Counted from the stretch's first letter, positions 5,986 to 58,435 are shown. The stretch: 64,000 nt of DNA from an uncultured Collinsella sp. (GCA_900540945.1 UQHQ01000005.1:29749-93748); one strand, 5' to 3'. The notes: generated by a model not told the origin, from the sequence alone. Numbers and translations are program-made.

Positions 5986-5992
5986 TGTTTGT

Positions 5993-6054
5993 GATCCGTT
6001 TTCCTCCGTCCCCTTCGGATTACGTGATCTGTTGGGGACGGAGGAAAACGGATC
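5993..6054. repeat. Perfect 21-bp-arm hairpin with a 20-nt loop. On the minus strand it begins directly after the TGA of the truncated MFS ORF.
   Basis: gatccgttttcctccgtcccc ... ggggacggaggaaaacggatc. No T-run, so it is not a canonical intrinsic terminator. Confidence 0.7.
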
Positions 6055-6472
6055 ATTTCGTAGGCCCGTGGCCGCCTTGGAAACCGAATGATGGTACGAG
6101 CATCCATTCGGCTTCCAGGGCAGCCACGGACAGAACGGAGCGAACAGAAAAGAGCACGTAGACCTGCCATAGCTCACCGGCAAAGCTCATGCCGGCAAGA
6201 ACGGCAGAGGTGGCGATAACGGTGGGGGAGCCCAAAACGCGGCCGTTTACTTTATCGGCAACATGGCCAATGACAAGTGAGCCGATGACGCCCACCACGG
6301 TGGAGATGGCGTTGGAGATGTTGTACTGGGCAAGCGTGATCCCGAGGTCGCTTACGATGAGCGGCTGGAACAGGCTCATGCAGTTAACGAAAATCGTGTA
6401 GCACGTGGCCATGATGACAAAGACGGAGGCCACGACGAGCCAACCGGGGAAGTATTTATGCTGCCGGGACAT
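6053..6472 (-). pseudogene. Probable remnant of an MFS transporter (only about 110 aa of N-terminal TM helices followed by non-MFS-like tail)
   Basis: 139-aa ORF with MFS-like N-terminus (hydrophobic helices, GHVADKVNGR motif region) that ends abruptly into the two large hairpins. A full MFS protein would be about 400 aa. Confidence 0.4.
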
Positions 6473-26346: not shown

Positions 26347-26386
26347 AGGAGGCATCCGAAAGGATGCCTCCTTTTTTGAGGGTTCG
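26347..26386 (+). terminator. Rho-independent terminator of the carboxypeptidase gene
   Basis: ggaggcatcc-gaaa-ggatgcctcc followed by tttttt. Confidence 0.7.
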
Positions 26387-26405
26387 AATCCCCAGCGCCC
26401 TTTCT
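26381..26405. repeat. Short tRNA T-arm mimic (inverted copy of the tRNA-Ser T-arm) downstream of the tRNA-Ser terminator
   Basis: gagggttcgaatccccagcgccc versus tRNA-Ser T-arm/acceptor ctggggttcgaatccccagctctcc on the opposite strand. Confidence 0.45.
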
Positions 26406-26453: not shown

Positions 26454-26544
26454 TGGCGGAGAGCTGGGGATTCGAACCCCAGATGCCCTTTTGGGGCATA
26501 CTCGCTTAGCAGGCGAGCACCTTCGGCCTCTCGGTCAGCTCTCC
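26454..26544 (-). tRNA. tRNA-Ser (anticodon GCT), type II with long variable arm, CCA encoded
   Basis: GGAGAGC acceptor, anticodon loop CTGCTAA, variable arm TATGCCCCAAAAGGGCATC, T-arm TGGGGTTCGAATCCCCA, GCTCTCC-G-CCA. Confidence 0.9.
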
Positions 26545-29080: not shown

Positions 29081-29160
29081 GAAATATCACCCTGATCGGT
29101 CGTCGAGAGAAGGAGTGGTCGCGGATGGGCCGCGACACCTACTCGGAATCTTACACGAGT

Positions 29161-29215
29161 CGATAAGAAATAGTCCGCTTTACACTCACGCCTCGACTGA
29201 GGTTCGGATCCATGG
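29161..29215. repeat. Partial (3' about 55 nt) copy of the tRNA-linked GC-rich element
   Basis: gtccgctttacactcacgcctcgactgaggttcggatccatgggatgccggcg, similar to the ends of the full copies at 29276-29404 and 29701-29830. Confidence 0.55.
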
Positions 29216-29256
29216 GATGCCGGCGTAAAAGAAAAGCCCCCGTTGCCGGAGGCTTG

Positions 29257-29404
29257 AAGTTCAATTGGTGCGGCGTATAGGATTCCGCGCATCCGCTTCG
29301 CGGATCCGCGCCGGCTTCGCCCGCCTGCCGGCGTGCTCGCCCGCTCGCTACGGACGCTCCGCGTCCGCTTTACGCTCGCGCCTCGACCGAGGTTCGAATC
29401 CATG
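29257..29404. repeat. Chimeric pseudo-tRNA unit A: 19-nt tRNA-Arg 3' fragment (29257-29275) fused to an about 125-nt GC-rich structured element containing an inverted T-loop mimic
   Basis: tggtgcggcgtataggatt | ccgcgcatccgcttcgcggatccgcgcc...cggacgctccgcgtccg...cgaccgaggttcgaatccatggg. Flanked on both sides by the shared terminator hairpin. Confidence 0.7.
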
Positions 29405-29405
29405 G

Positions 29406-29446
29406 GATGCCGGCGTAAAAGAAAAGCCTCCGTTGCCGGAGGCTTC
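29406..29446 (-). terminator. Terminator hairpin + T-run after tRNA-Arg copy 1
   Basis: On minus: CCA-attgaacttga-agcctccggcaacggaggct-tttcttttac. Confidence 0.6.
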
Positions 29447-29523
29447 AAGTTCAATTGGTGCGGCGTATAGGATTCGAACCTATGACGTTCTGATTCGTAG
29501 TCAGACCCTCTATCCAGCTGAGG
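29447..29523 (-). tRNA. tRNA-Arg (anticodon ACG), copy 1, CCA encoded
   Basis: GCGGCGT-TA-CCTC-AGCTGGATA-GAGG-G-TCTGA-CTACGAA-TCAGA-ACGTC-ATAGG-TTCGAAT-CCTAT-ACGCCGC-A-CCA. Confidence 0.92.
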
Positions 29524-29535
29524 TAACGCCGCGAC

Positions 29536-29564
29536 TTGTTGATTATTATGCACATGGACTGAAT
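29536..29564 (-). promoter_or_regulatory. Sigma-70-like promoter for tRNA-Arg copy 1 (TTGACC-N17-CATAAT on the minus strand)
   Basis: Revcomp reads cTTGACCattattcagtccatgtgCATAATaat, then about 7 nt to the tRNA 5' end. Confidence 0.6.
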
Positions 29565-29681
29565 AATGGTCAAGCGTTTTTTCAAAAAAAGTTATCGAAT
29601 TTGATTTTTACTCATTTGGAGCACTTGGCGCGATCCTCGACGTATCGCGATATAAGAAAAGCCCCCGTTGCCGGGAGCTTC

Positions 29682-29830
29682 AAGATCAATTGGTGCGGCG
29701 TATAGGATTCCGCGCATCCGCTGCGCGAATCCGCGCCGGCTTCGCCCGCCTGCCGGCGTGCTCGCCCGCTCGCTGAAAACGCTCCGCGTTTTCTTGACGC
29801 TCGCGCCTCGACCGAGGTTCGAATCTCCGC
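29682..29830. repeat. Chimeric pseudo-tRNA unit B: 19-nt tRNA-Arg 3' fragment (29682-29700) fused to an about 130-nt GC-rich structured element. On the plus strand it ends in T-arm-like gaggttcgaatctcc + gcaatgct-c-cca.
   Basis: About 90% identical to unit A. The central hairpin gaaaacgc-tcc-gcgttttc (unit A: cggacgc-tcc-gcgtccg) shows compensatory changes. Confidence 0.7.
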
Positions 29831-29871
29831 AATGCTCCCATATAAGAAAAGCCCCCGTTGCCGGGAGCTTT
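29830..29871 (-). terminator. Terminator hairpin + T-run after tRNA-Arg copy 2
   Basis: aagctcccggcaacgggggctt + ttcttatat on minus. Confidence 0.6.
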
Positions 29872-29948
29872 AAAGTCAATTGGTGCGGCGTATAGGATTC
29901 GAACCTATGACGTTCTGATTCGTAGTCAGACCCTCTATCCAGCTGAGG
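29872..29948 (-). tRNA. tRNA-Arg (ACG), copy 2, identical to copy 1
   Basis: Identical 77-nt sequence including CCA. Confidence 0.92.
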
Positions 29949-29960
29949 TAACGCCGCAAC

Positions 29961-29989
29961 GCACGGATTATTATGCACGCGAGCCCCCG
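29961..29989 (-). promoter_or_regulatory. Promoter for tRNA-Arg copy 2 (TTGACC-N17-CATAAT)
   Basis: Revcomp reads gcTTGACCcatcgggggctcgcgtgCATAATaatccgtgcgt-GCGGCG. Confidence 0.6.
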
Positions 29990-30036
29990 ATGGGTCAAGC
30001 GACAATTTGAAAAAATTTTACGGAGTGGTGATTAGG

Positions 30037-30065
30037 CTGTTCACACCCCGACCGAGGTTCGAATC
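30037..30065. repeat. Short partial copy of the element end with T-loop mimic
   Basis: ccccgaccgaggttcgaatccatgcatgg. Confidence 0.5.
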
Positions 30066-30069
30066 CATG

Positions 30070-30111
30070 CATGGTTTCCAAAAAAGAAAAGCCCCCGTTG
30101 CCGGAGGCTTC
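30070..30111 (-). terminator. Terminator hairpin + T-run after tRNA-Arg copy 3
   Basis: aagcctccggcaacgggggctt + ttcttttttgg on minus. Confidence 0.6.
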
Positions 30112-30188
30112 AAGTTCGATTGGTGCGGCGTATAGGATTCGAACCTATGACGTTCTGATTCGTAGTCAGACCCTCTATCCAGCTGAGG
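30112..30188 (-). tRNA. tRNA-Arg (ACG), copy 3, identical
   Basis: Identical 77-nt sequence. Upstream TTGACT...TTTATA promoter-like sequence at 30196-30235. Confidence 0.92.
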
Positions 30189-30271
30189 TAACGCCGCAGC
30201 GCAAGTCATATAAAACCACTTTAGTTAGTTGGAGTCAAGCACAATCTCAAACTTTTTTGAGAATATGTTCC

Positions 30272-30649
30272 TTACGCAGCTCCGCATGCGCCAGCGTCCC
30301 CCATGCGATCAATCGGTTTTTCAACCACATCGAACCCGGCACCGAGCTCCCTCAAAAGCGAGCGCACCCGCTGGGCACAGTCATAATCGGCAAACGAGAT
30401 GCTCAGCATGCGCGCGACCTGGTTAGAAGTCCCAACTCCATAGAACCGCTCAAGCGTCACAAGCCCCTCGTGCGTCACAAAAGTCTCGACTACATGCGAC
30501 GACTCCTCAAAACACCATTGGGTCAACGGGCCCTCGCTCGTCTGCCGCACCACCAAACCACCCACACCCGATGGCTCACACGTAACTAGTAAGTGCTCCC
30601 CACCTTCATCGCTCTCAAACAAAACTACCCGCTCATCAAACAGCTCCAT
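30272..30649 (-). CDS. Hypothetical small protein (125 aa)
   Basis: ORF with coding-like composition between the tRNA-Arg array and serS. No recognisable motif. Confidence 0.35.
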   Translation of the reverse strand: MELFDERVVLFESDEGGEHLLVTCEPSGVGGLVVRQTSEGPLTQWCFEESSHVVETFVTHEGLVTLERFYGVGTSNQVARMLSISFADYDCAQRVRSLLRELGAGFDVVEKPIDRMGDAGACGAA

Positions 30650-32217: not shown

Positions 32218-32391
32218 ATGGACGCAGTTTTTTCCTTTTTGTTTGGCACCCGCACCGGTTTTGCCATCCTTTTCGCCGGCGGCATCCTACTGTTTGCGAT
32301 TCTTGCCTTTGTAATGGAGAAGCGCACCCATAAGATGTATGTCGACCGCGGCCCCAAGGACGAGGACGATCAAGACAGCTTCTGGGACTAA
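32218..32391 (+). CDS. Possible small membrane protein (57 aa), below the track threshold
   Basis: ATG at 32218, MDAVFSFLFGTRTGFAILFAGGILLFAILAFVMEKRTHKMYVDRGPKDEDDQDSFWD, one TM helix, followed by the terminator at 32446-32498. Weak RBS. Confidence 0.3.
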   Translation: MDAVFSFLFGTRTGFAILFAGGILLFAILAFVMEKRTHKMYVDRGPKDEDDQDSFWD

Positions 32392-32445
32392 CCTGCCAAA
32401 AAGGGACTGGTTTATTTTGGTCGGTTTTATCTGGGCAAACGCAAG

Positions 32446-32498
32446 CGCCTCGCAACTGGAATTGAGCCAGTTGCGAGGCGCTTTTTGCTATAGAGATA
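32446..32498 (+). terminator. Rho-independent terminator (15-bp stem) + T-run
   Basis: gcgcctcgcaactgg-aattgag-ccagttgcgaggcgc-tttttgct. Confidence 0.65.
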
Positions 32499-32547
32499 AA
32501 ACCGCAGGAAAACCTGCCAAAATAAACCTGTCCCTAAATGGCAGGTT

Positions 32548-34883: not shown

Positions 34884-35098
34884 CGTGGACAAAAAAGTCC
34901 AAATATGAGTACTGCTACCAGTTTAGTAACAGCGTTTTAAAGACCAAAACGCACTGTTGGACCAAGATTCCTTTCAAATTGACTCAGTTCAGCTCAAGGC
35001 AGTGTTAAGTTAGCAAACATTTGTTGCGTAAATAGTGCAATGATCACCTTTGAAAATGTGATTCATTTAGTGACAGTACTCATATTTGACATTTTTTG
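34884..35098. mobile_element. MITE-like element: about 215-bp AT-rich segment bounded by 24-bp terminal inverted repeats
   Basis: TIRs caaaaaagtccaaatatgagtactg / cagtactcatatttgacattttttg (1 mismatch). The interior is AT-rich with nested inverted repeats and no ORF. Confidence 0.55.
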
Positions 35099-35148
35099 CC
35101 CCACAGGAAGCTTCGCTATACGAGGACCCTATGTCACATCTGTCAATT

Positions 35149-35240
35149 CGCCTGCCAGCGGACTCGCCAGCTCGCTAAAAACGCTCCGCGTTTTCTTTGC
35201 GCTCGCTCCTTCACAGGTTCAAGTCCCCGTGATGGGCCCA
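35149..35240. repeat. tRNA-linked GC-rich structured element (Leu-locus copy), ending on plus in the T-arm mimic caggttcaagtcc + gtgatgggccca
   Basis: cgcctgccagcggactcgccagctcgctaaaaacgctccgcgttttctttgcgctcgc... aligns with the Arg-locus copies over about 85 nt. The T-loop TTCAAGT matches the tRNA-Leu T-loop rather than the Arg one. Confidence 0.65.
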
Positions 35241-35280: not shown

Positions 35281-35367
35281 TGGTGCGGGCGAAAGGACTT
35301 GAACCTTCATGGGGTTGCCCCCATACGGACCTGAACCGTACGCGTCTGCCAATTCCGCCACGCCCGC
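35281..35367 (-). tRNA. tRNA-Leu (anticodon CAG), type II, CCA encoded
   Basis: GCGGGCG acceptor, anticodon loop TTCAGGT, variable arm ATGGGGGCAACCCCATG, T-arm GAAGGTTCAAGTCCTTT, CGCCCGC-A-CCA. Confidence 0.9.
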
Positions 35368-40904: not shown

Positions 40905-41197
40905 ACTGCCCCCTTCGGATCGTGCAGGCCAAACCTGCATCGTATTGCATAGGAAAAGTATCGTTTTGAGTATACCCGCGCGTGCGGACAGACGACCGAA
41001 CGGTCTGTAAAGTGGCGCAAAAGCGGGAGGAATGTCTGGGGCGAGCGGGGTCAAGATGACGTACCGAGATGCGCATACACGCCGAGGGCAGGCGCCGGAA
41101 AGCGCATTCCATTCTTTCGCTCAATAATGGGATGCGCTTTCCGCGGGTCCACATAAAAGAAAAGGACCCCTTTGCAGAGGTCCTAGTCAATTCAAGG

Positions 41198-41335
41198 TGG
41201 CGGGGAAGGGAATCGCGTCCGCGCGCTGCGCGGACGGACCGCTGCGGCGCCTGCGCGCCTTGCGAGCTACGCTGGAAAACGCTTGCGCGTTTCCTCAGCT
41301 CCGCGCCCTCACGGGGTTCGATTCCGTGCATGGTC
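41198..41335. repeat. Chimeric pseudo-tRNA unit (Phe locus): 18-nt tRNA-Phe 3' fragment (41198-41215) fused to an about 120-nt GC-rich structured element ending in the T-arm mimic cacggggttcgattccgtg
   Basis: Same architecture as the Arg units. The central hairpin ggaaaacgc-ttgc-gcgtttcc is homologous to the Arg/Leu hairpin with a different loop. The T-loop TTCGATT matches tRNA-Phe. Confidence 0.65.
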
Positions 41336-41383
41336 CACATAAAAGAAAAGGACCCCTTTGCAGAGGTCCTAGTCAATTCAAGG
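41336..41383 (-). terminator. Terminator hairpin + T-run after tRNA-Phe (a second copy after the pseudo-unit lies at 41150-41197)
   Basis: ggacctctgcaaaggggtcc + ttttcttttatgtgg on minus. Confidence 0.6.
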
Positions 41384-41456
<73 letters not shown>

Positions 41457-58301: not shown

Positions 58302-58435
58302 GGTTTTCGGAAGTATGCGGCAAATTCTGGAACCTCCGAGCACACCCTGTTTTTTCGCAACAAAATGCCTGATAAACTAGCCTCAAAAGCCAGGTCTGCT
58401 CATAGGGTTCAGATTTTGCCGCATACTTCCGGATT
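58302..58435. repeat. About 22-bp inverted repeats flanking an about 85-bp spacer (MITE-like or long regulatory stem-loop) upstream of the DUF559-like gene
   Basis: cggaagtatgcggcaaattctg ... cagattttgccgcatacttccg (2 mismatches). Confidence 0.5.

Follow-up and report, generated by a model that had tools for sequence, protein, structure and literature searches.

The window analysed in this study, a 64,000-nt stretch of DNA from an uncultured Collinsella sp., is a chromosomal housekeeping region with a GC content of ~60%, carrying genes for SerRS, MetRS, KsgA, TatD and a D-Ala-D-Ala carboxypeptidase. Six tRNA genes were found in the window, all of them on the minus strand:

26454-26544, minus strand: tRNA-Ser
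29456-29532, 29881-29957 and 30121-30197, minus strand: three tRNA-Arg(ACG) genes
35281-35367, minus strand: tRNA-Leu(CAG)
41382-41456, minus strand: tRNA-Phe

The tRNA-Phe gene stops at ..ACC and is followed by its trailer, the terminal A of CCA not being encoded; the remaining five genes encode the full CCA. Copies and relics of a small repeated element lie downstream of these genes, as follows:

26380-26396, minus strand: antisense-T-arm-only relic of 17 nt, cognate to tRNA-Ser and downstream of it
29173-29226, minus strand: older truncated copy of 54 nt, with the antisense T-arm end kept (blastn 92.6% over 54 nt)
29234-29255, minus strand: second terminator, beyond the Arg-A tRNA fragment (terminator scan)
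29266-29285, minus strand: direct copy of the tRNA-Arg 3′ end (GAATCCTATACGCCGCACCA, positions 57-76), abutting Arg-A (sequence, junction table)
29286-29415, minus strand: copy Arg-A (covariance-model match 29277-29405, 132.9 bits; sequence, alignment), made up of linker (29415-29402), antisense T-arm (29401-29390), central hairpin, P3 (CGCC-GGCA-GGCG) and end hairpin H0 (29286-29310)
29658-29681, minus strand: second terminator, next to the tRNA-Arg copy at Arg-B
29691-29710, minus strand: direct copy of the tRNA-Arg 3′ end, abutting Arg-B
29711-29840, minus strand: copy Arg-B (covariance-model match 29702-29830, 136.4 bits)
30049-30069, minus strand: antisense-T-arm-only relic, Arg type (blastn 21/21)
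35149-35238, minus strand: copy Leu(CAG), truncated after GGCAGGCG (covariance-model match 35105-35230, 72.4 bits; comparison with full copies in L001 and at other loci)
41146-41215, minus strand: distal direct repeat at Phe, 100% identical to 41332-41401 (repeat search)
41216-41331, minus strand: copy Phe, of a divergent subfamily (covariance-model match 41206-41329, 47.7 bits; fold z = -3.47), with H0 at 41216-41236 and the antisense T-arm at 41313-41325

A first-pass annotation of this DNA proposed a conserved, GC-rich, structured family with four copies sharing a core, which is confirmed by both a repeat search and a covariance model. The repeat search returned a 62-nt core in three copies at 87% identity, a 300-nt repeat common to the two Arg units and, at Phe, a perfect direct repeat of 70 nt. 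The covariance model, trained on 38 element copies from other genomes with the window Phe copy left out of training, gave only the four matches listed above, each of them on the minus strand, which is the tRNA-sense strand; below these four, the highest score was 16 bits. The four copies are therefore confirmed as genuine, far exceeding chance. The annotation had identified the core and the antisense T-arm correctly, but missed the tRNA 3′ copies on the low-coordinate side (29266-29285, 29691-29710 and 41196-41215), as well as the second terminator that usually follows such a copy. The Leu copy it named is present but is not full, being truncated at 35149, where unrelated AT-rich DNA (34887-35148) takes the place of H0, tRNA fragment and second terminator. 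The short T-arm-only piece that it placed at tRNA-Ser does match that gene, over 17 nt.

Arg-B lies downstream of the tRNA-Arg gene at 29881-29957 and of that gene's terminator (29848-29871), and the relic at 30049-30069 lies downstream of the third tRNA-Arg gene, at 30121-30197, and its terminator (30088-30111); at the equivalent place other strains have a full element plus this relic. The 54-nt relic is the last member of the Arg array, with a truncation point that recurs in many genomes, and both it and the relic after the third tRNA-Arg gene represent older copies that have been truncated and that occupy the outermost positions of arrays. The distal repeat at Phe begins with the tRNA-Phe 3′ end, C56 onward (41196-41215), and continues through the terminator for a further 7 nt.

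Other repeats were observed in the window. The AT-rich segment at 34887-35148 (~260 nt), which stands where other strains have the right end of the Leu element and their native flank, carries a 45-nt imperfect inverted repeat (34887-34931 / 35057-35101) and may be another small insertion. A second repeat family, at 41095-41146, consists of tandem hairpin units, GGAAA(N)GCGCATCCC ... GGGATGCGCTTTCC, of which one to four follow tRNA-Phe depending on the strain, often beyond the last element relic; such units are also found past tRNA-Phe in L004 and L005, and past tmRNA arrays (e.g., L045, L142 and L146). Long inverted repeats at 1327-1453 (with a perfect 28-nt pair, 1327-1354 / 1426-1453), 5992-6055, 32390-32547 and 58308-58431 appear to be unrelated to the T-loop elements. 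At ~15830-16910 in L001, L003, L007, L008 and L010, between tRNA-Ser and a conserved ORF of 793-813 aa, sits a strain-variable gene for a 360-aa AAA_16/AAA_22/HTH protein that is absent from the window.

Read in the tRNA sense, a unit is composed of a complete tRNA gene, an intrinsic terminator, a hypervariable linker of 8-14 nt, an antisense T-arm hairpin, a long central hairpin, the P3 hairpin (clamped by GGC/GCC) and H0, followed by CG(GA[C]), a direct copy of the tRNA 3′ end and, usually, a second terminator. The element is about 190-250 bp in size, the insert being 116-130 nt plus the repeat, and it contains no ORF; indels of 1-2 nt among copies fail to keep a reading frame. The loop and inner stem of the antisense T-arm hairpin are the exact antisense of the cognate T-arm, over positions 51-62 at least and up to position 67. 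The agreement between the T-loop of each copy and the neighbouring tRNA, which had been noticed earlier, thus extends further, with 12-17 nt shared with the cognate tRNA vs. 4-13 nt with non-cognate genes; the cognate gene was the best match in 7/7 host types tested, and the antisense T-arm is cognate too in the 16 host types found later. The 7-9 nt and CCCA/CCACA that were reported beyond the T-loop are literally there, but their description as an acceptor-like tail is unsupported, as they fall in the hypervariable linker, where pairing is not conserved. A pairing of the linker with the internal GCCGG(T/C)G segment, resembling an acceptor stem, was also considered and was rejected, its covariation being partial and failing in many copies.

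The fold of the core is strongly conserved. In a set of 38 diverse copies, pairing in the three core hairpins reaches 87-100%, vs. 30-40% for slid partners, and 89.8% of cells overall are paired, vs. 30-40% in slid controls; two-sided changes occur in 79 cells, compared with 30.9 in shuffles (0/500). The compensatory changes previously seen in the central hairpin hold for the window stems (AAAACGC/GCGTTTT, CGGACGC/GCGTCCG and GGAAACGC/GCGTTTCC) and are joined by more alleles elsewhere, those of the family including AAAAC/GTTTT, CGGAC/GTCCG and CAAAC/GTTTG, and those of H0 including GGATCC/GGAT(G/A)C, GTATTT/AAATAC and GGGTTC/GAACAC, with the stem alleles of both hairpins mixed across host types. 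The Ser and Phe subfamilies retain the architecture with the sequence changed in every stem, so that covariation runs throughout, and the fourth pair of H0 is a conserved mismatch. When single sequences are folded with DNA parameters, they outperform shuffles only weakly (z -0.7 to -2.6). The antisense T-arm pairs with the tRNA fragment, and so closes the element, both in the consensus fold and in the minimum-free-energy fold of the Phe copy.

Modelled folding favours one strand. The consensus (alignment) folding energy is -36.0 for the tRNA-sense strand vs. -18.9 for the opposite strand, the mean minimum free energies are -65.3 and -55.3 kcal/mol, respectively, and in supported helices G.U-type cells outnumber A.C-type cells by 44 to 4, with one terminal pair giving 29 of the 44. 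These predictions indicate that the folded strand is the tRNA-sense strand, although part of the bias could come from transcription-associated mutation; GC skew suggests that this strand is also the lagging-strand template. The proposal that the copies encode a structured ncRNA antisense to the tRNA unit, on the plus strand, is not supported by either the folding energies or the G.U to A.C ratio. A version of this proposal, in which a plus-strand, tRNA-like ncRNA ends in a T-arm, an acceptor-like stretch and CCA, accords with the cloverleaf-like folds of single plus-strand copies and with 7-bp closing stems in Arg-A and Phe, yet the closing pairing and the 'CCA' fall in the unconserved linker, the family folds worse on the plus strand, where A.C mismatches replace G.U pairs, and the hairpin beyond is a terminator on the minus strand only. 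This reading is largely refuted and is considered extremely improbable. The shared terminator that had been placed at the plus-strand end of the element is likewise not one, as all five terminators predicted in the Arg region (29100-30300) are minus-strand tRNA terminators; the only good promoters in that region are those of the tRNA genes.

The junctions are informative about how the element enters. In nine host types (Phe, Arg, tmRNA, Lys, Thr, Ser(TGA), Ala, Gln and Glu; junction table) the tRNA-derived part starts at G57, directly after G53-T54-T55-C56, and in the other host group the junction is offset to N59, with AC replacing G57-A58. The flanking repeat measures 12-90 nt and consists of tRNA 3′ end, in some cases together with the terminator. 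In most hosts (tmRNA, Gly, Leu(TAA), Val, Lys, Gln, Ser(TGA) and Ala) the direct repeat is the tRNA 3′ end alone, with a median of 12-35 nt, and the trailers differ on the two sides; at the four loci of this genome it spans the T-loop to just past the terminator, i.e., the end of the pre-tRNA. Between contigs of the Lys locus the two terminator types trade places, the proximal one becoming distal and vice versa. The differing trailers and terminators, together with the exchange at Lys, show that the element carries its terminator along, in the manner of tRNA-targeting integrative elements, and the host gene copy upstream of the element is complete and terminated. A start at G57 or N59, a repeat consisting mostly of the tRNA 3′ end, and terminators that differ argue for the logic of an integrative element rather than for target duplication.

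A 'tRNA-templated' origin, which had been one of the earlier suggestions, does not agree with the Phe fragment, in which the terminal A of CCA is missing and the sequence continues into the gene trailer; this fragment was therefore copied from DNA or from the primary transcript and not from a mature tRNA. In the case of an RNA-mediated (retro) element, reverse transcription of a copy's transcript and insertion into the tRNA 3′ region, by target-primed or R-loop synthesis, would give a duplication reaching from the T-loop through the terminator, and the repeat at this genome's four loci does end just past the terminator; the hypervariable junction linker and a structure in the transcribed sense point the same way. 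However, most hosts repeat only ~20 nt of tRNA with unlike terminators, which target copying cannot give, there is no linked reverse transcriptase, and truncations occur at either end, making a retro element very unlikely.

A number of narrower candidates were tried and rejected. The fragment is not the cDNA of a mature tRNA (an 18-nt stop at m1A58), as the Phe fragment is without A76 and runs into the trailer, and target-primed or R-loop duplication was rejected as the general mechanism, most hosts having a proximal terminator unlike the distal one. Truncations that always keep the terminator-proximal end would have hinted at 5′-truncated retro-copies, but right-half relics exist at Gly(CCC). 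Integration by recombination of the tRNA T-arm with the antisense T-arm predicts a broken tRNA or a perfect palindrome, which were not observed. Retrons, group II class C introns, bridge-RNA and omega-RNA systems were discounted, since there is no linked protein gene, and their size and architecture do not fit. The 813-aa ORF beside the Arg array, considered as a recombinase, has no Pfam match and a weak TPR-like NCBIfam match, and is present in all strains.

The specific core pattern was found in at least 120 stretches, all of them from Collinsella (C. aerofaciens or Collinsella sp.) among the matches listed. A looser pattern added at least 120 more stretches in metagenomes, mostly from the human gut, with the genus being known for the genome matches only. 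Among the matches listed, from Collinsella genomes and gut metagenomes, 16 gene types possess an antisense T-arm together with a direct 3′ copy, namely tRNA-Arg(ACG), Leu(CAG), Leu(TAA), Gly(GCC), Gly(CCC), Ser(GCT), Ser(TGA), Phe(GAA), Val(TAC), Lys(TTT), Lys(CTT), Gln(TTG), Glu(TTC), Ala(TGC), Thr(TGT) and tmRNA. The further tRNA-adjacent copies with a matching T-loop that the first-pass annotation anticipated are therefore many, and all are cognate. Some other tRNAs of the same loci carried no element (e.g., Cys(GCA) 0/16, Leu(GAG) 0/13 and Val(GAC) 0/11).

The context of 277 near-full copies of the main subfamily was counted. A tRNA or tmRNA gene on the same strand precedes 240 of them, 235 lying <120 nt downstream of the gene and 5 within arrays. 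Of the other 37, 20 are too near the end of the sequence available and 17 lie after ...CCA and a terminator without a called gene, in arrays, or by an assembly gap; these 17 are uncalled tRNA or tmRNA genes, tandem arrays, and attR ends of islands or prophages. Not one of the 277 near-full copies was found in an unrelated context.

The first-pass annotation did not recognise the element as a known RNA family, and only tRNA reached the gathering threshold when the whole window was searched against Rfam, and permissive scans of the Arg and Phe regions produced only sub-threshold chance matches. No description of the family emerged from the searchable literature on Collinsella repeats, on attC-like tRNA sites or on tRNA-targeting elements that are miniature or non-autonomous; the family is previously undescribed. 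Some loose-pattern matches in environmental metagenome contigs (L191, L202 and L215) are due to chance and share the motif ..GGTGGT(C/T)GGGAGTTCGAC(A/C)AAACGCG...GCGTTTTGG...

Strain variation was compared over ten loci (L001-L010) sharing an identical SerRS protein, the exact protein being present in 2,807 blocks of the public assembly collection. The Phe element is filled in L001, L002, L006 and L009, and empty in L003, L004, L005, L007, L008 and L010, while L003 and L007 are also without the Leu element. Empty alleles are precise, missing exactly the core and one repeat copy, and are common even among very close strains. This polymorphism fits either gain or loss, and all of the empty alleles could be deletions between direct repeats. 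Full Ser-type elements are located between tRNA-Ser and the relic in L002, L004, L005, L050 and L068, and the window, which keeps the 17-nt relic alone, looks like the product of such a deletion. Truncated copies retain either end, with isolated right halves at Gly(CCC), and half copies parted by a long insert were not seen.

At the Leu locus of 39 species-level representatives, the mean pairwise column identity is 0.966 for the core, 1.0 for the tRNA and 0.95 for the terminators, compared with 0.907 for the coding end of tatD and 0.759 for the downstream flank. As the identity of the core exceeds that of the adjacent coding sequence and flank, the core is either constrained, or continually homogenised or re-spread. 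One alternative is a host ncRNA module, in which the core and tRNA fragment, transcribed by read-through of the tRNA terminator, would act on the cognate tRNA or pre-tRNA (for example, by kissing through the antisense T-arm, or by sequestration of the duplicated 3′ half), with spread being secondary. The high identity of the core relative to the flank, the structure favoured on the tRNA-sense strand, the terminator after the tRNA fragment and an antisense T-arm perfectly complementary to the cognate T-arm would all agree with this. On the other hand, no promoter of its own was found and the module sits behind a strong terminator, the empty alleles common in very close strains show it to be dispensable, copies are often truncated, and 16 tRNA types with cognate ends still require duplicative, target-specific insertion. 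A host ncRNA module is for these reasons thought unlikely.

Larger mobile elements use some of the same genes. Prophages and islands integrate at the same tmRNA and tRNA genes beside the elements, and direct repeats of tRNA 3′ ends with tandem accretion match the pattern of CIMEs and ICEs (PMC5704250), so the copies might be decayed remnants of integrase-bearing islands or prophages (CIME-like attL/attR remains) instead of a mobile miniature family. This would, however, need an identical internal deletion to have happened independently at 16 targets, and cores are 85-97% identical across host types with their covarying hairpins kept. The core was also not found in a phage genome collection (blastn), and viral contigs gave no match to the specific core pattern; the copies that the looser pattern found in viral contigs are host flank past the attR end of a prophage, located at tmRNA or at a tRNA with the ending GGGGGCACCA, and so lie outside the prophage end. 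Descent by decay is thus distinctly unlikely.

The tmRNA and Gly loci show additional structure. Islands or prophages at the extreme tmRNA 3′ end, upstream of tmRNA-type elements, were observed in L085, L117, L126, L130, L142, L144, L146, L182 and L266, and end in G(G/T)GTTCG + 16 nt + GCTCCACCA, a pseudo tmRNA 3′ end with at least four distinct versions of the 16 nt, located directly before the tmRNA terminator and element array. In older units of the tmRNA and Gly(CCC) arrays (e.g., L013 3100-3700 and L203 5100-5300) a spacer of ~90 nt, rather than a terminator, follows the fragment, and its motif (AGATTCGA..GACCGG) is common to both loci. About 300 nt downstream of the element at the Gly(GCC) locus (e.g., L012, L027 and L056) there are two allelic structures, one of which has ~250 nt, with a different terminator and an inverted core-like piece (GCCCGCTCGCT), separating the tRNA fragment from the terminal relic; the allele breakpoint is inside the antisense T-loop.

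The family combines a constant anatomy, exclusive and oriented linkage to tRNA or tmRNA genes, cognate ends, presence/absence alleles, element-borne terminators and a conserved structure. It is suggested, with moderate confidence, that these are ORF-less, non-autonomous, site-specific elements that target tRNA and tmRNA T-loops and are mobilised in trans by a putative recombinase. The 'tRNA-gene-targeting small element' named among the earlier alternatives fits the data in the same way. In the tRNA sense, the mobile unit would consist of a replacement tRNA 3′ end (after G53-T54-T55-C56) with its own trailer and terminator, the linker, the antisense T-arm hairpin and the core of three covarying hairpins, the last being H0 plus CG(GA[C]). 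Insertion would leave the tRNA intact and terminated, displacing the original 3′ end downstream, where it would survive as the 'fragment'; repeated insertion would build arrays and recombination between repeats would remove copies. The recombinase may be of the tyrosine integrase type or of the HUH single-strand type, cutting after GTTC, and its substrate would be the folded tRNA-sense strand as the lagging-strand template, in which the antisense T-arm may pair with the T-arm 3′ half and so build or align the recombination site. No recombinase gene adjoining the elements was found, and neither excised circles nor fresh insertions were observed.

Two points sit poorly with a conventional integrase. 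The 16 host types with closely related cores imply frequent host switching, which is difficult to reconcile with a classical integrase and attP because non-cognate insertion would give a chimeric tRNA, and the antisense T-arm is without a counterpart in known attP sites. With related cores at 16 targets, a strand-specific fold and an antisense T-arm, the element is unlike a classical attP and resembles folded single-strand substrates. A more specific proposal, which can be put forward only tentatively and is rather improbable, is that of a self-guided single-strand element in which the antisense T-arm serves as an internal guide or splint across the cleavage point, spanning tRNA-side positions 51-56 and positions 57-62+ of the element or fragment. 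A recombinase (HUH or tyrosine) cutting after GTTC would then be sent to whichever tRNA matches the guide, and target choice, encoded in the DNA of the element, would be reprogrammable, which would account for 16 hosts with one core.

If the reading as T-loop-specific elements mobilised in trans is correct, these would be the smallest known class of elements using the strategy of integrating into a tRNA gene and repairing it, with many tRNAs served by a single conserved folded module. This would point to a recombinase target set by nucleic-acid complementarity instead of protein specificity, which would bear on mobile-element biology and on programmable insertion tools. The elements also account for tRNA 3′ pseudo-fragments, for the duplication of terminators and for variation in the flanks of tRNA genes in a very common human gut genus, and provide presence/absence markers for strain typing. 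They are, in addition, repeats across which metagenome contigs may be joined chimerically. In one such contig (L184, ~1600-1900) an Arg-type terminator, linker and antisense T-arm on the left are joined to Gly(CCC)-type H0 and tRNA fragment on the right, either through misassembly across the repeat or through real recombination between copies.

Comparison with known systems separates this family from several classes. Group I introns are known in the T-loop of tmRNA (PMC11915505), but here the upstream gene is complete and terminated, the core is 120 nt and there is no Rfam intron match. As with MITEs, the elements are small, ORF-less, structured and present in many copies, with a terminal inverted repeat of 6-17 nt (antisense T-arm vs. 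T-arm 3′ half). Unlike MITEs, this inverted repeat is target-derived and depends on the locus, site and orientation specificity is absolute, and the target-site duplication of 2-10 bp is absent, the flanking repeat of 12-90 nt not being fixed. Integron attC sites offer a closer likeness, in that the site is conserved as a one-strand fold with inverted terminal boxes and a crossover at the edge of a box shared with the primary site; newcomers enter beside the primary site and push older units away, as integron cassettes do, and the conserved mismatch of H0 recalls the extrahelical bases of attC. The context of intI, attI or Pc is nevertheless lacking, a tRNA gene serves as the primary site, the cargo is limited to a terminator and a tRNA 3′ end, and the attC boxes (RYYYAAC / GTTRRRY) do not fit the T-loop box (GTTCGAA or GTTCAAG), which has C at the fourth position.

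Among HUH transposons, IS608 uses the element's own bases to pair with the cleavage or target site, and unlike IS608-type elements the putative 'guide' here is 12-17 nt rather than 4. Strand-specific activity and single-strand intermediates, as in IS91 and other HUH transposons (IS200/IS605; PATE/REPIN-type derivatives), would be a further likeness. IS91 relatives insert beside a GTTC/CTTG tetranucleotide, have two unlike hairpin-bearing ends and form a single-strand circle, and a mini-IS91 of 89 + 82 bp suffices with transposase in trans (PMC13181058). The present elements similarly insert after GTTC without a classical short target duplication, the tRNA part abutting GTTC in nine hosts and the others reading AC at 57-58, and their ends are dissimilar, each bearing subterminal imperfect hairpins. 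The terminal bases (GCGCG / CGGC / GGAC) differ from those published for oriIS and terIS, the last four (GCGC/CGGC) not matching the known terIS cleavage tetranucleotides (CTCG/GTTC), no HUH gene was found linked to the elements, and, unlike IS91 and HUH elements, the targets are tRNA T-loops only, not any GTTC, with a target-side end that is itself tRNA sequence.

Integrases that target tRNA genes at the T-loop belong to elements that supply their own tRNA 3′ end, displacing the original, and Williams, in 2002, reportedly described sublocation classes of tRNA- and tmRNA-targeting integrative elements that include crossover at the T-loop. The family shares with these the insertion in the 3′ part of a tRNA or tmRNA gene and the replacement 3′ end, a direct repeat starting in the T-loop flanking the insert and the tRNA gene being restored. 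An integrase gene inside the element is absent. CIMEs are flanked by attL and attR and are without integration and transfer genes (PMC5704250), and the elements likewise have attL/attR-like flanks, accrete in tandem at the same gene and are without integration, transfer or recombination genes. CIMEs derive by decay from an ICE or IME; for the present elements no such parent was found in the phage collection or, with the specific core pattern, in viral contigs. They differ from T-loop integrative elements and CIMEs alike in measuring ~190-250 bp rather than kilobases, in carrying a terminator as their only cargo, in having one folded core across 16 targets, and in their internal antisense T-arm.
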